Shown piece by piece: positions 3,609 to 20,890 of a DNA stretch of 23,048 nucleotides. The stretch comes from a virus (Duplodnaviria; Heunggongvirae; Uroviricota; Caudoviricetes). The notes under the pieces were generated by a model, which saw only the letters and a program-made list of their open reading frames with translations, made no database searches and was not told the DNA's origin. The stretch is taken from the IMG/VR virus record IMGVR_UViG_2651869692_000002; one strand, written 5' to 3'. Numbering within the stretch: position 1 is the stretch's first letter; the number at the start of each line of letters is the position of its first letter. Both the position numbers and the translations under genes were made by a program.

Positions 3609-4055
3609 TCACCCCGCCAGCCATTGCAGAATCATGTCGCGGGTCATTGCCTCAACATCATCATTTACACCCAGAAGGCGACGCTCTGCGTAACGGACCT
3701 CCGGTCCTTTGCGGCTGACGCGATCACGTAAGCCGTAGTGATGAACACGGGCAATGCGCTGTACCTTGCCTTCAAACTGCACGCTGGCAGAGTCGGCGCT
3801 GGCGGAAGTTTTCAGGTATTTTGTGGTGCGCAGCTTTGCAAACATCTGACGTTTGATACGGCCTTTTTTACTGCGTGCTGTTACCCGTCGCGGTTCATAA
3901 CTGCTGCCATCTGGATTGCGCTGCATTCTGATATTTTGCTGCTGTGTCCGGCGTAGTTCCTGCGCCAGCTGGCGCATCATGCGGCTTCTTGCGGCTGGCT
4001 CCAGATTCGCCAGCAAGGCACTCAGCCAGTCGTCCACTTTCTGCAGTTCAGCCAC
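3609..4055 (-). CDS. S: Tail completion protein (P2 gpS-like)
   Basis: 148-aa ORF starting at a GTG that overlaps the R stop; size and position match gpS. Confidence 0.7.
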   Translation of the reverse strand: MAELQKVDDWLSALLANLEPAARSRMMRQLAQELRRTQQQNIRMQRNPDGSSYEPRRVTARSKKGRIKRQMFAKLRTTKYLKTSASADSASVQFEGKVQRIARVHHYGLRDRVSRKGPEVRYAERRLLGVNDDVEAMTRDMILQWLAG

Positions 4056-4479
4056 GTTTCACCGTCCACATTTCTTCAGGTTCATCAGGTTCCGCTATAG
4101 CTTCAACGCTCGACACACTGCCGTCAGTGCTGACCAGCACACGCTCCGTCAGTTGCAGGTTGAGGCTGATATCACAGACATCGTTGCGCAGAATATCCAC
4201 CTCAAAGGTGAATAGCTTTTCCCGTAACGCCGGGTTATTGATGGCATCGGGCTGGTTATCACGCAGCCACAGCAAAACCGGGGCCATCAGCAGATTCTGG
4301 TCGCCGCTGAAATCCTCAATCACCACGTTCAGGGTGTAGCGGTACTCCCATGACATGGAGCTGGCCCCCGTGGCAACCAGCGAACCGTTATCCACAAACA
4401 GATGCAGTTTGTCCGGGTTATTTCGGACATAAGGCACCGCTTTATTGAGGGCGTGGCGCAGGGATTGTGGTTTGTTCAC
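4048..4479 (-). CDS. R: Tail completion protein (P2 gpR-like)
   Basis: Track start at 4500 is a TTG; the GTG at 4479 preceded by AGGAG gives an N-terminus (V/M)NKPQSLRHAL that aligns with gpR; FVDNGS motif conserved. Confidence 0.7.
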   Translation of the reverse strand: MNKPQSLRHALNKAVPYVRNNPDKLHLFVDNGSLVATGASSMSWEYRYTLNVVIEDFSGDQNLLMAPVLLWLRDNQPDAINNPALREKLFTFEVDILRNDVCDISLNLQLTERVLVSTDGSVSSVEAIAEPDEPEEMWTVKRG

Positions 4480-4732
4480 TGTTTCGCTCCTGACACGCAA
4501 TAATCATGTCCACTTTGTCTGCACAGATCGCCCAGGCGGCCTCCGTTTCATCCAGCAACGCATTCAGATCACCGTTAGTGCGCGGTGCTGCCTGCTCCAG
4601 CCGACACGGCGTCACTCTCGAACAACCACTGACGGTAAGCTGCACCTCCGGTGAGTACCGGACGTTCCCGCAGCCGGATAATGTCAGCAGGCAAAGGAGT
4701 ATCAGCCCAGTGGCGTAAATCCTCGTTCTCAC
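4442..4732 (-). CDS. lysC: Outer-membrane spanin lipoprotein (LysC/Rz1-like), overlapping the 3' end of lysB and the 5' end of R
   Basis: GTG start with GAGGAA RBS; N-terminal lipoprotein signal with lipobox LTLSGC; out-of-frame overlap with the i-spanin gene as in P2 lysB/lysC. Confidence 0.6.
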   Translation of the reverse strand: MRTRIYATGLILLCLLTLSGCGNVRYSPEVQLTVSGCSRVTPCRLEQAAPRTNGDLNALLDETEAAWAICADKVDMIIACQERNSEQTTIPAPRPQ

Positions 4733-5003
4733 GTTTCAGTTCCTCGATCCGGCGTTGTCGTTGTCTCAGCTGTGCGCTGGTCTGTTCTGCTTCGGCATAG
4801 AGCCGCGCCTGCTCCCGGTTATTGGTTTCATTCAGAATGGACAGGCTGATAAGCTGGCTGTTGCTCTTTGCCAGTGCCTGGCTTTTGCTCTGCAGCTCGT
4901 TTGCCTGCGTGCTGATGGTCTGGCTGGCATCAGCCAGCCGCCACGTCTGCCAGCCCAGCGCCGCCAGTAATAACGCCAGCACAACCAGCAGCAACCGGTT
5001 CAT
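4575..5003 (-). CDS. lysB: Inner-membrane spanin (LysB/Rz-like)
   Basis: 142-aa ORF with N-terminal transmembrane segment followed by a charged, coiled-coil-like region; ATGA overlap with the lysA stop. Confidence 0.7.
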   Translation of the reverse strand: MNRLLLVVLALLLAALGWQTWRLADASQTISTQANELQSKSQALAKSNSQLISLSILNETNNREQARLYAEAEQTSAQLRQRQRRIEELKRENEDLRHWADTPLPADIIRLRERPVLTGGAAYRQWLFESDAVSAGAGSTAH

Positions 5004-5377
5004 GCTGCTACCTGTTGCGCCATCTGATTACGGGTGATCCAGAAGGCAATAACGGTCAGTAGATAAAAGACCAGGGTAATAGCCCACCCCGTCCATGCGA
5101 GACTTACAACAATCAGCAATCGCATCACCCAACTGATAAATACGTTTTCTTTTCGGGTAATTGTCTTCAGCAAAGATGCCCTTAACTCCTGCCAGAGCGG
5201 GCCATTCTGAATTAACGCAGCCAGTGCTACCGGAATTACCGCCCATGTCAGCAAACAGGCTACCCAAACGCCGGACGCTGCCAGTACCGGAAAGATCCCC
5301 TGCGGATACACCATTGCTGCGATTAACAGCGCCATCCATAACATCAGAAACAGTCCGCTGATTAATTTCTTTTTCAT
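5000..5377 (-). CDS. lysA: LysA-like lysis-timing membrane protein
   Basis: Multi-pass hydrophobic protein; track ORF starts at GTG 5449; the ATG at 5377 (MKKKLISG...) sits immediately after the endolysin stop. Confidence 0.6.
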   Translation of the reverse strand: MKKKLISGLFLMLWMALLIAAMVYPQGIFPVLAASGVWVACLLTWAVIPVALAALIQNGPLWQELRASLLKTITRKENVFISWVMRLLIVVSLAWTGWAITLVFYLLTVIAFWITRNQMAQQVAA

Positions 5378-5378
5378 T

Positions 5379-5891
5379 TCAGTTTGCTCCCTGTAAACAC
5401 CAGGCCATCTCCCGCGCACGGCGGTTATCCAGCCCCTGATTAAACACACCTTTTACATAAACCCAGCGCGGCAACTGTCGGCACGCATCCGCCCAGCGCC
5501 GCTGATTGAGCAATTTCACCAGCGTGGAACTACAGGCATTGCCCGTCCCCACGTTGAAGGCAAACGACACCGTAGCGTCATACACCTTCTGTGGTGGCTG
5601 TTGCTTCACACACCTTTCCAGTGCCCGCTCCACACGCAGCACGTTGGAGATCAGCCCTTCTGCTGCCTGTCGTTCCGTGATTGTTTTGCCGGGAATGACG
5701 CCCGATGTATTACCAATGCCGTCGGTCCAGACACCCGCGCTGCACTGATACGGCTGCAGACGACAGCCTTCGTAATCGGCAATCAGTTTCAGTCCCTCCA
5801 CGGAGGTGTGAAGCTGCTGAAAACCCGGCAGCGTGGCAGCAATAGCCAGCACGACCCCGACAAGGCAGCGTTTAACGACTGATGGATTCAT
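5379..5891 (-). CDS. K: Endolysin (P2 gpK-like lysozyme) with N-terminal hydrophobic signal-anchor-release-type segment
   Basis: 170-aa ORF; GGGAGG RBS; N-terminal RCLVGVVLAIAATLPG hydrophobic stretch followed by a lysozyme-like domain (EG..L.AY....G.WT.G.G motif region). Confidence 0.8.
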   Translation of the reverse strand: MNPSVVKRCLVGVVLAIAATLPGFQQLHTSVEGLKLIADYEGCRLQPYQCSAGVWTDGIGNTSGVIPGKTITERQAAEGLISNVLRVERALERCVKQQPPQKVYDATVSFAFNVGTGNACSSTLVKLLNQRRWADACRQLPRWVYVKGVFNQGLDNRRAREMAWCLQGAN

Positions 5892-12670: not shown

Positions 12671-13270
12671 CTACTGTTTCTTAGAAGTAATGTAGCGTCT
12701 TACTACATCAGTTATTGTAGCAAAAGGTGCCGAAAGCAAGCTTATATCACCTTTAAAACCAAATTTTTTATAGTGGTCAGCAACTTTTTGATTCAGGGCT
12801 TCAGGGATCCGAATCTCTTGACACCCAACCGCGCTACCAAAAAGATATACCGCCCACAATGTAACCATGAACATGTTGCCGTAAAGAGGGTGCTCTACGT
12901 CATCATCTTTCACAAAAGATTCCACAAAATGGATCTCTATGACTCCAGCGTCCTCGTCAAAGGTGCACATAGCTGCGCCAGAAGGGATATGCCTAAGTGG
13001 CCCCGCAAGGAGCTTCAAACAAAATTCAAACTTATCACTTCGATTGCCAAACCGAGAAAAACCATAATCCCATTCTAGCTGAGCGTATCCTGTGGTCAGG
13101 ATCACATAGTCTTCATCACTGATTGGACCAACAGCCAACGGCATCTTCAAAGTATCGAGGAGAAACTGAAGGTTACTTATACTTTGACTGGCAATCTGCT
13201 CTAAGTTCAATTCTCTGTCCTTCATGCTTACGACATTAAAGGCGACTACTTTAATGTCATTTTCGGACAA
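12671..13270 (-). CDS. Hypothetical protein (199 aa), AT-rich accessory gene between the portal gene and the putative cos
   Basis: 600-nt ORF in an AT-rich region; start uncertain (TTG at 13270 or ATG at 13225, neither with a strong RBS); no family recognised. Confidence 0.5.
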   Translation of the reverse strand: MSENDIKVVAFNVVSMKDRELNLEQIASQSISNLQFLLDTLKMPLAVGPISDEDYVILTTGYAQLEWDYGFSRFGNRSDKFEFCLKLLAGPLRHIPSGAAMCTFDEDAGVIEIHFVESFVKDDDVEHPLYGNMFMVTLWAVYLFGSAVGCQEIRIPEALNQKVADHYKKFGFKGDISLLSAPFATITDVVRRYITSKKQ

Positions 13271-13698: not shown

Positions 13699-14418
13699 TT
13701 AGCCAAAGCAGAAACCAATATTGCAATTTGAAACTCCACAGTTGTGAAATTGATGTGGACCTACTCTTAGCTTGTGTTCGTCTCCTACAATCCGAGTCCC
13801 CTTAACCAACATATCTAATCTTTCCACAATCAATCTTTCAGGCGCATCAACTTTAATAATTAAACGAGGACCTTTCCTTTTTTCTATAATAGTTATTCTA
13901 GGACCGACAACCTGAACATCCCAATGCCTTGCACTACAAACCCACTCATTCTTAATTAATTCAAGATTAACAATACCTTGACTATCGTAAAATTTACCCG
14001 AAATAAGAAAAGCATTATTTTCTTTTTCAATGGTTAACAATGGCTCATTTTGAAACATTATTGGTACAGTACAGGATTCAAACGTCGCACCACCAAATAT
14101 TATTGTTGGATGCCTATCAGAAAAGTCCAATATATCGGCCACATTCCCTTTTTGTAAGGCTGCAGGAGATTCCATTGCTTTAATTATTTTCTCTTTAGAG
14201 TAAAGACGTTTCGTTACTTTCGCATGGCACGTAGGACAAAGTAGTGCTATTGCATTTGGAGAGTGCTCCTTTGCATCAGCGTATGTGGGAATTACATGCT
14301 CATACTCAACAATGGGAGAAGCACAAACAACGCAACCGAAGCCACAGCGCTGCCTTACCTCCAGTTTTACAGGTTCAGGAATTGTTCTAGATAACCCATG
14401 CTTGTTAATAGTTGTCAT
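13699..14418 (-). CDS. HNH-family endonuclease domain protein with uncharacterised ~160-aa C-terminal domain
   Basis: 239-aa ORF, ATG at 14418; N-terminal CGFGCVVC...EYEHVIP...NAIALLCPTCH matches the HNH fold (paired Cys plus H-N-H residues); AT-rich composition; own terminator. Confidence 0.7.
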   Translation of the reverse strand: MTTINKHGLSRTIPEPVKLEVRQRCGFGCVVCASPIVEYEHVIPTYADAKEHSPNAIALLCPTCHAKVTKRLYSKEKIIKAMESPAALQKGNVADILDFSDRHPTIIFGGATFESCTVPIMFQNEPLLTIEKENNAFLISGKFYDSQGIVNLELIKNEWVCSARHWDVQVVGPRITIIEKRKGPRLIIKVDAPERLIVERLDMLVKGTRIVGDEHKLRVGPHQFHNCGVSNCNIGFCFG

Positions 14419-14540
14419 AACCTTACCTTAAAACTTCGAGAAACCTTTTATATATTGATACTATATCAACTAACGCCTCGCACAGCTCGTTGTTCAACCT
14501 TGCTGACGCCAGAAGCAAGTTCAGACGCCAGCAACGTTTC

Positions 14541-14774
14541 TTAATGCAGCCAGCTGTCGTCTTCCCACACCTTCTGCATAATTTTCATCACTTGTTTTCT
14601 TTCTTCGTCCAGTTGAAGTCCGGTCAGTTCCACACCGTTAGAGCTACCTTTGCGGATACGAATTACCGTTTTGGGATACAGGGGGCGCAGATTGCGGTAA
14701 AGCTCGGATTCAAGGGCGTCCAGGGTAGACTGGCTAATCTTCTGCTCTTTATCGATCATTATTTCAATGCGCAT
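14541..14774 (-). CDS. dinI: DinI-family protein
   Basis: ATG at 14774 with GAGGTGA RBS; MRIEIMIDK...L.ELYRNLRPLYPKTVIRIRKGSSNGVELTGL...KQVMKIMQKVWEDDSWL resembles DinI (MRIEVTI..., C-terminal ...WE..D.W); the track ORF's longer N-terminus is a frame artefact. Confidence 0.75.
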   Translation of the reverse strand: MRIEIMIDKEQKISQSTLDALESELYRNLRPLYPKTVIRIRKGSSNGVELTGLQLDEERKQVMKIMQKVWEDDSWLH

Positions 14775-14784
14775 AAAAGTCACC

Positions 14785-14973
14785 TCAACTGATGACATCC
14801 ATTGAGCGGTTGTATTCGTGGGTTCTGATTTTTGCCATGAGTTCATCTGTCAGTTCAGAAACCCACTGCAGGGCCAGCCCCTTCTCTTCATCACTACACT
14901 CACTAGCCGCTACAAGCTTAAGAAAAAAATCAATGCGCTGGAGCTTCAAAGACTCCAAAAAATAGTCCTGCAT
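14785..14973 (-). CDS. Small SOS-controlled protein (62 aa), first gene downstream of a LexA box; possible Tum-like antirepressor component
   Basis: ATG at 14973 with AGGAGG RBS, 41 nt downstream of a consensus LexA box; stop overlaps the RBS of the DinI-like gene; functional assignment is by position only. Confidence 0.5.
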   Translation of the reverse strand: MQDYFLESLKLQRIDFFLKLVAASECSDEEKGLALQWVSELTDELMAKIRTHEYNRSMDVIS

Positions 14974-15014
14974 CTTTCCTCCTATGACACCACAAGAAAT
15001 ACTGTAAATATAAC

Positions 15015-15034
15015 CACTGTTTATATTTACAGTA
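15015..15034 (-). promoter_or_regulatory. LexA operator (SOS box) at the promoter of the small-ORF / dinI module
   Basis: Minus strand TACTGTAAATATAAACAGTG fits CTGT-N8-ACAG with AT-rich spacer; an adjacent half-site (CTGT at 15002-15005) is also present. Confidence 0.7.
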
Positions 15035-15125
15035 TATAATAATCTTACTGATGTAAAACGTTTTTTACGTTCATCAGCCTGATATGCCTGGTATTATTAA
15101 GAGCACGAATTGTTAACCCGCGTGA

Positions 15126-17540
15126 TTAATACAGGTTCCGCCACTTATCATCTTCCTGCAAACGCTGGTTCCGATAGAAGATACGCAGGCCTGCTCCTGA
15201 CGGAATACTGCCGCCGCGAAGGAGTAAATCGACCTCTTTCTCGCTGCCATCAAATCCTCTGGACTTCAGTTCATAGACGAGCTGCTGTCGCTGATGGTCT
15301 GTAATTCGCTGTTTGTAGTCTTTACGCCGTTTCGGTTTCACCAGGCGTAACCTTGCTGCCAGTTCCCGGCGCTCTTTTTTGCTCATACTGTGCAGGTAAT
15401 CGTGCAACTCCTTGTCATCCATGCGGGTAATGTCCGTTCTGGTATCCCCATCAGCTGATTTGTCTTTCCCTTGTTGGTTCAAATTTTCAGCAAGGGGACA
15501 GTTATTGCCACGAGTCCAAGGGGCGCAAGCGCCCTGGTCGGCTGCCGCCTCCTGAACGTCAACGGCCTTACGAACCATTTTCCACTTCACGGCATGAGTG
15601 CAGATCTTGCCCTCTGCAATAGGTGACCAGATGCCATAAATACGAATGCCGTGATCGCCATAGGCGGTCGGCTCTTCGTTGATTTCATAAGCAGTTCTGA
15701 TGAGGTGATATTTACGGGGAACCAGTACGCCGCCCTGCTTCATGATGTAGGTGGCAAAACAACCAGCATCAGCAGCAGCCAGGATTGCATCAAGCCGCGG
15801 GTTATCCAGTACCGGCGCACCTGCTTTTTTGTCACCCTGTTGCCTTGCCGCCTGACCAGCCAGCAATCGCAGTTCACGGTAAGCCTGACGCCCCGGAATG
15901 CCAAAGAAGCGGAATTGCTGAACACGATGCAGAGACGCCCAGGCATTCACGTATTCAGCGTTATCACGCAGGGATTTACCCGTTTCCTTGCTGATCTCGC
16001 CAGCCAGACCACGCCCGTCAATGTTCTTACTGATATATTTCGCGATGTAGCTTGTCGGCGTTCCTTTGCGCGGGTTAATCAACTCAGACTTAAAGCGTGG
16101 TCCCGTGTTATTCCCCAGCTCCTCGCGGTCTTCACGAATGGCAAACTTACGCAACAAAGCAGTAATGGCGCGGCGATCTTTTTTGCGCATAAAACACAAC
16201 AGGTGCCAGTGAACTGTACCGTCATGATGCGGCTCAGCCACCCGCACGCCATACCAGCGCAATCCGGCTTTGTGCATCGCCTTACGAAATGCAGCAAACA
16301 TGCCAACCAGATAATCACTGCTTTGTCTTACCGTCGCATTTGTCCAGGTCGGGTTGGGCCTGCCGTTATTTAGCGTGGAATGGAAACGTGACGGACAGGT
16401 GATGGTGTAGAAAACGGCGCAGTCACCGCGCATTTCCGCGATAAGCTCCAGGCCTTTAACACAGGCCATCATCTCATTGCGGCGATGCGCAGGGTTGCTG
16501 CTGCTGGCGTTTACCACATCCTCCATGTCCAGCGTGTCGCCGTCTTCGTTCACCAGTTCATGAGAACGGAAAAACTCCAGCGACTTACGGCGCTGCTCAC
16601 GTTTATGCATCACGGCTTCATAGCTGACATAGGGAGATGCTTTTTTGCTGACCAGACAGACAGCACGCAACTGCTCTTCCCGCCATTCGCAACGCATCTT
16701 CCATAATTTCCGATACCACCAGTCGGCGCACAGCATACGCGCCAGCGAACCCGGAATGAGTTCATAGGGCACAGGTTTGCGGCGGTTTCTTTTTCGGCGG
16801 AGTTGCTCAAACGCAGGCGGTATGACATCCAGTCGCAGGGTTTCTGCTGCCACCTTTTCCCATGTCTTGCGGATTTCTTCCGGCTTAACATCATCGGAGG
16901 CGTACAAATCACCACAAGCGGCATCAAGACACATGCTCATATGCGCAGCGACAAGGGTGGACAGGCGTTTCACCTGATCCTGACTCATTTCAGGCAGGAT
17001 CAGCAGACCGTCCAGCCCTTCATGGCTTGCCATAAAACGAAAAGATGCAGATAGCTGGCTGTCGCGTACATGCTCCAGTCGTTCCAGGCATGGCTTAATC
17101 GTCTCACGCAAATAGCGGGAATAAGCCTTTGGCCTGCCCAGGTTGCTGAAGTATTTAATACGTTGCATCAGCGGCTTGCTGATATGGGAAGGCTGGGCGT
17201 TGACATCCGCCAGAATGACCATGTCTGGATTAAAACGCTGCTGCTCATGCGCCAGCTTTGCCCGGCTAATTAGCTTATCCTGCTCCATTTCGCGCTGGAC
17301 AGGATCACGGGATTCATTAAAGAAATAACGCTCCCAGACCTGATCACTCAGTGCCTCGCGGCGCAGTTGTTCCTGCTCGTTATCGGCAGCGTACAGAGTG
17401 ATCAGGTTTGAAAGTGCAGAAACCGGCGCAACTTCCGCCGGGTCCAGATAAGGGTTAATGGCCTTTTTCGGGCTGTTCCATGAGAATGCTGCGGCAGCCT
17501 CGTTAAAGCCGCAGCAGTTGTTCATATCGGCATGACTCAT
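15126..17540 (-). CDS. A: Rolling-circle replication initiation protein (P2 gpA-like)
   Basis: 804-aa ORF with HWHLL metal-binding motif and YIAKYISK tyrosine motif typical of gpA/phiX174-type Rep proteins; canonical position after the early operon. Confidence 0.85.
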
Positions 17541-20320: not shown

Positions 20321-20890
20321 ATGAATTTGGAGAAAGGCGGACGAGGCGCTATAGAGCGCATGGTAGAAGCTTATGGATTCAAAACTCGACAGGCGTTGTG
20401 CGATCATTTAGGAATCTCTAAAAGTACACTCGCTACACGCTACATGCGTGACTCATTCCCAGCAGAATGGGTAATCCAGTGCGCCCTTGAAACGGGCACC
20501 TCGCTTAATTGGCTCACAACTGGACATGGTTCAAAGCAAACTTCAGGTAATACAAATACGATGGAAGTTGCGAAATATGTATTATCTGATGGTGCCTTGC
20601 GTGAAGACGGTTTTTATATTTTTGATAAGGGATTTCTACCCTCTACGTTTAAAAAACCTTTTGTCATCACAGATAACAATTCTGAATTTATTTGTGATAA
20701 AGAATTTGATGATATACGTGATGGTAAATGGGTAATAAGTATTGATGGCGAAATAACAATCCGCGACATTACTCGTTTACCCGGTGGAAGAATCTTCGTT
20801 GAAGGTGGAAACAGAGCCTTCGAGTGCAAGATAGAAGATGTTGAAATAATTGGAAAAATTATAAGTTTAACAATTAAGTACGTTAGGTAA
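20321..20890 (+). CDS. cI: CI immunity repressor (phage 186 type)
   Basis: ATG at 20321 with GGAG RBS (track ORF starts at an upstream GTG); EAYGF...CALETG..L.WLTTG and ITIRDITRLPG...FECKI.D motifs resemble 186 CI. Confidence 0.8.
   Translation: MNLEKGGRGAIERMVEAYGFKTRQALCDHLGISKSTLATRYMRDSFPAEWVIQCALETGTSLNWLTTGHGSKQTSGNTNTMEVAKYVLSDGALREDGFYIFDKGFLPSTFKKPFVITDNNSEFICDKEFDDIRDGKWVISIDGEITIRDITRLPGGRIFVEGGNRAFECKIEDVEIIGKIISLTIKYVR

Follow-up and report, generated by a model that had tools for sequence, protein, structure and literature searches.

A module on the minus strand of a 23,048-nucleotide stretch of viral DNA (the window) is, with high probability, the SOS operon of a Fels-2-like prophage, in which LexA represses a 62-amino acid antirepressor that acts on the CI repressor and a DinI-like protein has an accessory function. 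In a lysogen, host LexA would sit on an operator at 15015-15034, over the -10 element of the promoter, and the operon would be silent. Upon DNA damage, RecA would be activated, LexA would cleave itself, the promoter would fire, and the 62-aa protein, a predicted helical hairpin, would be made. This protein would be the split-gene equivalent of the N-terminal half of Tum from phage 186, that is, a TumA, and it is proposed to bind the 186-type CI encoded at 20321-20890 non-covalently, such that the lytic promoter is freed and lytic growth can begin. The co-transcribed 77-aa DinI-like protein, of the TumB type, would act as an accessory, most likely by binding RecA filaments and tuning the strength or duration of the SOS response.

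The original prediction, made from the DNA letters, had proposed a LexA-controlled SOS circuit of the 186 type, and this holds: the module occupies the same slot as tum of phage 186, the LexA box is conserved, and the genetics of a close relative agree. It had also suggested that the arrangement of the antirepressor might be novel, which does not hold, given that split tum genes are in print for Fels-2 and PSP3 and that the PSP3 record names tumA and tumB. [quoted passage not shown] In PSP3, the antirepressor activity was assigned to the upstream gene on the basis of a personal communication from E. Christie, reported through Bunny 2002 in Lemire 2011 (PMC3121763). The module is ordinary, widespread and already characterized, and the claim of novelty is unsupported.

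Functional evidence comes from DuoHS, a P2-like prophage of E. coli HS. In the Phollow paper (Nat Microbiol 2025, PMC12055606), the gene called tum (ECHS_RS04495) was deleted in frame. Neither lysis nor viral foci were seen after treatment with mitomycin C, either in the delta-tum strain or in a strain with the lexA(Ind-) allele G85D (PMC12055606, Extended Data Fig. 1). ECHS_RS04495 is an ORF of 189 nt, flanked by gene A on one side and by ECHS_RS04500, the DinI-like gene, on the other. The deletion primers match the window exactly, NHR24 at 14971-14993, which includes the ribosome binding site (RBS) and ATG, and NHR28 at 14765-14787, which includes the TGA as well as the beginning of the DinI-like gene. 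By its design, the deletion keeps an ATG-TGA and leaves the GAGGTG RBS of the DinI-like gene intact. The LexA box of DuoHS is identical to that of the window, the DinI-like protein is identical at 77 of 77 residues, the small protein at 61 of 62 and the CI at 95%. Published genetics on this orthologue thus show that both the small gene and a cleavable LexA are needed for induction. Experiments of the kind that could have overturned the original prediction have largely been done on DuoHS, where delta-tum and lexA(Ind-) each abolish mitomycin-induced lysis. DuoHS differs from the window by one residue (T51S), a few synonymous changes, two positions in a second box described below and a different cargo gene downstream.

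The 62-aa ORF, the DinI-like gene and their control elements were located at the coordinates given below, all on the minus strand of a P2/186-like genome. The replicase gene A (15126-17540, with its stop side at 15126; Pfam Phage_GPA, E 2e-127) lies directly upstream of the 62-aa ORF on the same strand, and the order of gene A followed by the small ORF is the same in 186, PSP3, Fels-2 and DuoHS. The 62-aa antirepressor gene, of the tum or tumA type, extends over 14785-14973 and starts with an ATG at 14973. Its RBS, AGGAGG, at 14978-14983, is separated from the start codon by 4 nt (AGGAGG-AAAG-ATG). The 77-aa DinI-like gene, of the tumB type, extends over 14541-14774, and 10 nt lie between the TGA of the 62-aa ORF and its own ATG at 14774, with a GAGGTG RBS preceding at 14781-14786. 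The original prediction had described a LexA box 41 nt upstream of a 62-aa ORF with a strong RBS, followed by a separately initiated DinI-like gene near a replicase gene in a 186-type context. Each of these points was confirmed: exactly 41 nt separate the box from the ATG at 14973, and the replicase and the CI are identified by Pfam. A 101-aa ORF from 14846 was also considered as the DinI-like gene and was rejected in favor of the 77-aa form, whose alignment to DinI models, as to the RefSeq annotations for Fels-2 and E. coli HS, begins at its residue 1.

The LexA operator, or SOS box, TACTGTAAATATAAACAGTG (15015-15034, read from 15034 to 15015 on the minus strand), has three mismatches to the consensus TACTGTATATATATACAGTA. 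The full 20-mer is the sole such site in the 23-kb window, and it was generated in none of 100 dinucleotide shuffles. The looser pattern CTGT-N8-ACAG appeared by chance in 26 of 100 shuffles; therefore, the weight of the assignment rests on the match to the full box and on its conservation. The box is invariant among the window, Fels-2 and DuoHS. More broadly, a CTG-N10-CAG box is found upstream of the small ORF at all 15 loci compared, which comprise 186, PSP3, Fels-2, DuoHS, the window and ten loci from relatives. The latter are the carriers of six divergent homologues that are 31-48% identical to the 62-aa protein of the window. At these ten loci the box has two to four mismatches to the consensus, and at nine of them it is 15-21 nt from the start codon. 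In the remaining locus, L012, box and called GTG start overlap, and the true start is therefore probably a downstream codon.

The site could in principle be a chance palindrome in AT-rich DNA, with the genes under some other control, such as read-through from gene A. The frequency of the loose pattern in shuffled DNA would allow for this, as would the weak hairpin past gene A, which makes some read-through plausible. Nevertheless, this explanation is extremely improbable, given that the full 20-mer never arose in the shuffles, that the box persists at every locus despite deeply diverged flanks and that lexA(Ind-) blocks the induction of DuoHS (PMC12055606). It is also at odds with the title of Bunny 2002, which attributes the lethality of a lexA null mutation in Salmonella to the Fels-2 prophage, a carrier of the same box. 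LexA control of the operon is thus the reading carried forward.

A putative SOS promoter lies at 15029-15057 on the minus strand, with TTTACA as the -35 element (15057-15052), a spacer of 17 nt and TACTGT as the -10 element (15034-15029). The exact hexamers were chosen by eye from the sequence and are to be taken as candidates. The LexA box begins with this same TACTGT, such that operator and -10 element overlap. A TTCACA or TTTACA followed after 17-18 nt by TACTGT was found in most of the relatives' loci. The SOS promoter was not called in a consensus promoter scan of the window; it was missed by this simple scan because TACTGT agrees with TATAAT at just three of six positions. The arrangement closely resembles p95 of phage 186, which is LexA-repressed with the box over its -10 element and reads TTCACA, 18 nt, TACTGT. 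A LexA operator that appears to overlap the -10 element in this way is in keeping with a Tum/TumA-type module. The distance from box to start codon differs between the two phages, being 18 nt in 186 and 41 nt in the window.

The first box was also found to supply one arm of a 14-nt inverted repeat without mismatches (15000-15013 and 15021-15034), a feature absent from the original prediction. The repeat gives rise to a second, degenerate LexA-like box, CAGTGGTTATATTTACAGTA, at 15000-15019 on the minus strand, which has five mismatches to the consensus. The second box overlaps the first by 5 nt, and one of its CTG/CAG half-sites is spoiled, with GTG in place of CTG. Two of its AT-rich positions differ among the window, DuoHS and Fels-2, and it is missing from the relatives in which 15-21 nt separate the first box from the ATG. 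The second box is probably not an independent operator. The 41-nt spacing is seen in the lineage of Fels-2, DuoHS and the window, versus 15-21 nt elsewhere, and the added DNA is what holds the second box.

Two hairpins flank the module on the same strand. The first, AT-rich, is at 15042-15083, just past the stop codon of gene A at 15126; the RNA fold of 15030-15130 on the minus strand has an energy of -18.7 kcal/mol (z -2.1), and the 3' arm holds the -35 element of the SOS promoter. This hairpin may have a terminator-like role. Similar palindromes have been described ahead of LexA boxes in the Gifsy prophages (Lemire 2011, PMC3121763). The second hairpin, GC-rich and without a U-tract, is at 14496-14538, directly past the stop codon of the DinI-like gene. 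The fold of 14415-14545 on the minus strand includes a GC-rich stem of 11 bp and has a total energy of -34.7 kcal/mol (z -2.1). A consensus terminator scan of the window flagged neither 15042-15083 nor 14496-14538. The second hairpin is likely the end or an attenuation point of the SOS transcript, and its position corresponds to that of t95a, a partial terminator in phage 186.

The identity of the 62-aa protein is less apparent from direct comparison. BLASTP against 186 Tum and PSP3 TumA returned no alignments, and tblastn against 50,697 phage records returned only the protein's own family, together with a non-significant match to a Yersinia "tum protein" (E = 4). Searches of the protein with Pfam, NCBIfam and PADLOC found nothing, and it is labeled "hypothetical protein" in the source databases and RefSeq and "unknown function" in PHROGs. 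Through an exhaustive search with phmmer, which covered 1.84 billion representatives, 66 family members were gathered, down to 36% identity. An HMM built from the family gives 186 Tum a score of 25.9 bits and gives homologues that are standalone "Tum proteins" 30-36 bits; PSP3 TumA obtained no score with this HMM. Since pairwise BLASTP and tblastn, as well as HMM scoring of TumA, gave nothing, the case for kinship to Tum rests on profile methods. The failure of pairwise methods to find similarity to Tum also explains why the protein was missed by the databases and by the original prediction, which had called it unrecognized. Its near-identical orthologue in DuoHS has in fact been published as tum.

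The profile methods agree with one another. In an hhalign comparison of the 62-aa family with the family of the N-terminal half of 186 Tum, residues 3-44 align with residues 3-44 (probability 95.5%, E 1.6e-8). The 186 Tum protein matches phrog_698, the PHROG of the 62-aa family, over positions 7-44 (E 2.4e-5), and both the 62-aa protein and 186 Tum match phrog_8554 and phrog_1993, the latter being the PHROG to which PSP3 TumA belongs. A motif, [QE]R[IV](D/E)..(A)[RK]L....C....[KR].[LI]A[LI], is common to both families and is visible in intermediate members. Many homologues of the N-terminal half of 186 Tum are standalone proteins of 63-78 aa. By these profile comparisons, the 62-aa protein and the N-terminal half of 186 Tum are remotely homologous. 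The alignment to 186 Tum that had been suggested as a check therefore gave a divided answer, with no pairwise match for the 62-aa protein on the one hand and, on the other, the profile-profile match and a DinI-like product with 41% identity to the C-terminal half of Tum.

The AF2 model of the 62-aa protein is a two-helix hairpin (helices 2-23 and 28-61; pLDDT 85.5), with a nearly invariant Cys26 in the turn. Trp37, in the second helix, is the only column that is invariant across the aligned 62-aa family. A Foldseek search of the PDB with the model found generic helical hairpins only, with a best E of 0.7, and was set aside as uninformative. The ORF is under purifying selection; the genes from the window and DuoHS differ at four synonymous codons and one non-synonymous codon.

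The lack of any BLASTP match to 186 Tum or PSP3 TumA, of any Pfam or NCBIfam family and of any functional label in the databases or PHROGs could be read to mean that the 62-aa protein has no relation to Tum and is an antirepressor of a new kind that just happens to sit in the same slot. This reading is given very little credence. The two families align in register over residues 3-44, the PHROG cross-hits are reciprocal, and intermediate members carry the common motif. Moreover, the module agrees with 186 in position, operator and promoter layout, and both the name tum and the division into two genes are already in print. Homology to the Tum antirepressor is the preferred account.

The 77-aa product is readily recognized as DinI-like. 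It matches Pfam DinI (PF06183) over profile positions 1-63 of 63 with an E of 7e-23 and a score of 81.3 bits against a cut-off of 24.2, and it matches phrog_189, "RecA filament binding protein DinI", with an E of 1.5e-29. On the NCBIfam DinI equivalog NF007893 it scores 42.7 bits, below the cut-off of 111. By these scores the protein is a phage paralogue of the TumB type, with the equivalog score excluding an orthologue of host dinI. Its identity is 100% with its counterparts in Fels-2 and DuoHS, 78% with PSP3 TumB and 41% with the C-terminal half of 186 Tum, in keeping with the view, put forward with the original prediction, that this half of Tum is DinI-like. Binding to RecA filaments, with modulation of co-protease activity, is the function suggested by these matches, and its role in the operon would be an accessory one. 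The exact role of DinI has been called elusive, and non-polar deletions of dinI in the Gifsy prophages produced no measurable change in induction (Lemire 2011, PMC3121763).

Only in some lineages is the small ORF followed by a DinI gene, which is often missing from the ten relatives' loci. At six of these loci, ogr and the portal gene come immediately after the box and the small ORF, with no DinI gene, and the small ORF lies directly after gene A wherever the upstream DNA of the relatives is available. Comparison of these loci indicates that the small ORF and the LexA box are the conserved core of the module, to which the DinI-like part is optional. Because the relatives that are without DinI still keep the box and the small ORF, the essential function is placed in the small ORF; an optional DinI-like part fits the small ORF as the antirepressor.

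The roles of the two genes could be reversed, with the DinI-like protein as the real inducer, alone or together with the small protein, and the 62-aa ORF as a mere leader or translational-coupling element. The 10-nt gap between the genes means that deletion of the upstream ORF could reduce translation of the DinI-like gene, and the text of PMC12055606 reports no complementation of DuoHS delta-tum, such that a polar or coupling effect on the DinI-like gene is conceivable. In phage 186 the antirepressor and DinI-like parts share a single polypeptide, and the 186 record describes shorter, DinI-only Tum products that "modulate SOS induction". Still, the reversed assignment is improbable. The DuoHS deletion preserved an ATG-TGA and the RBS of the DinI-like gene, six loci do without that gene, and the small ORF, under purifying selection, is homologous to the half of Tum that is not DinI. 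The placement of antirepressor activity in the upstream gene of PSP3 and the lack of effect of the Gifsy dinI deletions point the same way (Lemire 2011, PMC3121763). The 62-aa protein therefore remains the candidate inducer.

The presumed target of the antirepressor is the CI immunity repressor, encoded on the plus strand at 20321-20890, where the original prediction had also placed it. The protein matches Pfam Phage_CI_repr (PF07022; E 3e-33) and Phage_CI_C (PF16452; E 2e-28), and its score on Peptidase_S24 is sub-threshold, at 16.7 bits against a cut-off of 23.3. These domain matches assign it to the 186 type, as opposed to the self-cleaving type of LexA and lambda CI. It is 95% identical to the CI of DuoHS and 32% identical to the CI of 186, with which it aligns over its whole length. 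In phage 186, the LexA-regulated promoter p95 drives expression of Tum, which sequesters CI reversibly (PMC7708051). Tum blocks the binding of CI to its operators without cleavage, according to Shearwin et al. 1998, as cited in PMC3121763 and PMC7708051. By analogy to 186, the 62-aa protein would be expected to bind CI directly.

A further observation concerns the specificity of this interaction. Phages whose CIs are only 37-54% identical to the window CI overall share the 62-aa protein at 98-100% identity. The CIs of Fels-2, vB_EcoM-813R9, Kp4860-7 and Kp4846-2 show 35-59% identity among themselves. The CIs paired with this shared protein are 67-78% identical to the window CI in the N-terminal DNA-binding domain and 25-41% identical in the C-terminal domain; for Fels-2, the values are about 39% overall, 67% and 25%. 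Across 13 phages, which are phylogenetically non-independent points, the identity of the antirepressor correlates with the identity of the CI N-terminal domain (Spearman 0.92) and does not follow that of the C-terminal domain (0.07). One tentative interpretation of these identities, which we put forward as a possibility that is less than even, is that the Fels-2-type 62-aa Tum is a broad-specificity antirepressor that recognizes the conserved N-terminal domain of 186-type CIs. The identity of the N-terminal domain may simply track overall relatedness, and recent shuffling of modules is an alternative explanation for an identical antirepressor alongside divergent CIs. If the broad-specificity interpretation is true, a single SOS module could act for several P2-like prophages with differing CIs and also cross-induce them. 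The combination of an identical antirepressor and divergent CIs therefore raises a testable question, that of cross-induction between co-resident P2-like prophages.

The module can also be compared to other known systems. In phage 186, tum also sits between gene A and cos, but the antirepressor half and the DinI-like half are in one polypeptide of 146 aa, whereas the window has two genes. PSP3 has the same split two-gene layout past gene A, with a LexA box 20 nt upstream, and its record annotates tumA as "similar to 5' end 186 tum; UV induction of prophage" and also names tumB. There is no significant pairwise or HMM similarity between PSP3 TumA and the 62-aa protein, which are linked only through phrog_1993 and 186 Tum, and the N-terminal domain of the PSP3 CI is 47% identical to that of the window. 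Fels-2 is much closer. Its small protein (STM2728) is identical at 61 of 62 residues (S62N), and its DinI-like protein (STM2726.1) and LexA box are the same. In the Fels-2 record, STM2728 is hypothetical and STM2726.1 is of the DinI family and "similar to TumB of PSP3". Lemire 2011 (PMC3121763), citing Bunny 2002, describes the Fels-2 locus as a tum gene split by a stop codon. More distantly, the dinI-gfoA/gftA operons of the Gifsy prophages place a LexA box over genes for an antirepressor of about 60-70 aa and a DinI homologue, and the repressor is not cleaved (Lemire 2011, PMC3121763). The Gifsy antirepressors can act in trans on other prophages (Lemire 2011, PMC3121763). The Gifsy operons differ from the module in that dinI comes first, in that the phages are lambdoid and in that the repressors are unrelated.

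The module is common. Its DNA is about 97% identical to the modules of Fels-2 and DuoHS, and 731 bp around it are 99.2% identical to several E. coli chromosomes. A match was found in 1125 of 5426 complete E. coli genomes. Among phage records, identity is 98.6% over 588 bp to Fels-2 and 91-97% to many Peduoviridae of Klebsiella and Escherichia. The rest of the window is of the P2 type, with a pair of ORFs of the size of portal and terminase genes and further ORFs to the left, a Dam methylase, a CII, the 186-type CI and an integrase. The source element is a Fels-2-like prophage of E. coli (Felsduovirus type, of the P2/186 family).

Given that the circuit, the split layout and the genetic requirement have all been published, the module has little value as a discovery. 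What it does expose is a gap in annotation, in that the antirepressor is unlabeled yet present in roughly one in five complete E. coli genomes and in many prophages of Klebsiella and Salmonella. The SOS-inducibility of prophages that carry the 62-aa antirepressor can thus be read from sequence.

The similarity of the window to Fels-2 ends at the hairpin at 14496-14538, downstream of which the sequences diverge. The cargo gene that follows in Fels-2 is unlike that in the window, and orf97, the gene downstream in phage 186, is unrelated to it. In the window, the module is followed by an ORF with an HNH domain, ahead of which lies a small inverted repeat. This ORF was considered as a counterpart of 186 orf97 or Fels-2 STM2726, to neither of which it has similarity, and it was instead taken as variable cargo that lies outside the module.

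A single antirepressor sequence (window 14785-14973, minus strand) is found together with many types of the CI immunity repressor (window CI, 20321-20890, plus strand; loci L016-L026). Copies of the 62-aa antirepressor with 98-100% identity occur in Fels-2, vB_EcoM-813R9 and the Klebsiella phages Kp4860-7, Kp4846-2 and Kp4865-2, and the CI proteins of these five phages have just 37-54% identity to the CI of the window. Antirepressor identity correlates with the identity of the CI N-terminal domain, with a Spearman coefficient of 0.92 over 13 non-independent points. The identity of the CI C-terminal domain does not track that of the antirepressor (Spearman 0.07, n=13, the points again non-independent).

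Small Tum-like proteins also occur apart from DinI. Many homologues of the N-terminal half of 186 Tum exist as standalone proteins of 63-78 aa. In the distant P2-like relatives L006, L010, L011, L013, L014 and L015, a LexA box and a small Tum-like ORF are present without a DinI-like gene, and this ORF is adjoined by ogr and the portal gene. In some source databases, members of the 62-aa family (window 14785-14973) carry the name "Levan regulatory protein" or "levan regulatory domain protein". No analysis run here supports that label for the family; it seems to be an annotation error that has been propagated.

Upstream of the 62-aa ORF, two 14-nt arms, TACTGTAAATATAA and TTATATTTACAGTA, form a perfect inverted repeat around a 7-nt spacer (window 15000-15034). 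The repeat gives rise to a second, degenerate LexA-like box, which shares 5 nt with the real LexA box (15015-15034, minus strand) and differs at 2 positions among the window, Fels-2 and DuoHS (the E. coli HS prophage) sequences. Both the repeat and the second box are confined to the Fels-2/DuoHS/window lineage, in which the distance from box to ATG is 41 nt, compared with 15-21 nt elsewhere.

Downstream of the module, in the place taken by orf97 in 186 and by unrelated genes in Fels-2 and DuoHS, the window has a 239-aa HNH-domain ORF (13699-14418, minus strand; Pfam HNH, E 2e-5; phrog_6544, labelled as of unknown function). Among defence-system models this ORF matches just one, for type IV restriction, and that marginally (E 0.0095), and a small inverted repeat, TTGATA-CTA-TATCAA (14455-14469), lies just upstream of it. 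Between the HNH ORF and the portal-side genes is a 199-aa ORF (12671-13270, minus strand; phrog_4350, also labelled as of unknown function), for which searches against Pfam and PADLOC returned no match.

Directly 3' of the tum/dinI module, the cargo differs between three relatives with divergent homologues of the 62-aa protein. L007 carries GAPS4-like defence genes (PF26110, PF26115; 3530-6189 of that locus), L008 a DUF6575 protein (3792-5521) and L012 a DNA methylase paired with a NotI-like endonuclease (626-2705). The position after the module appears to be a hotspot for variable cargo or defence genes.
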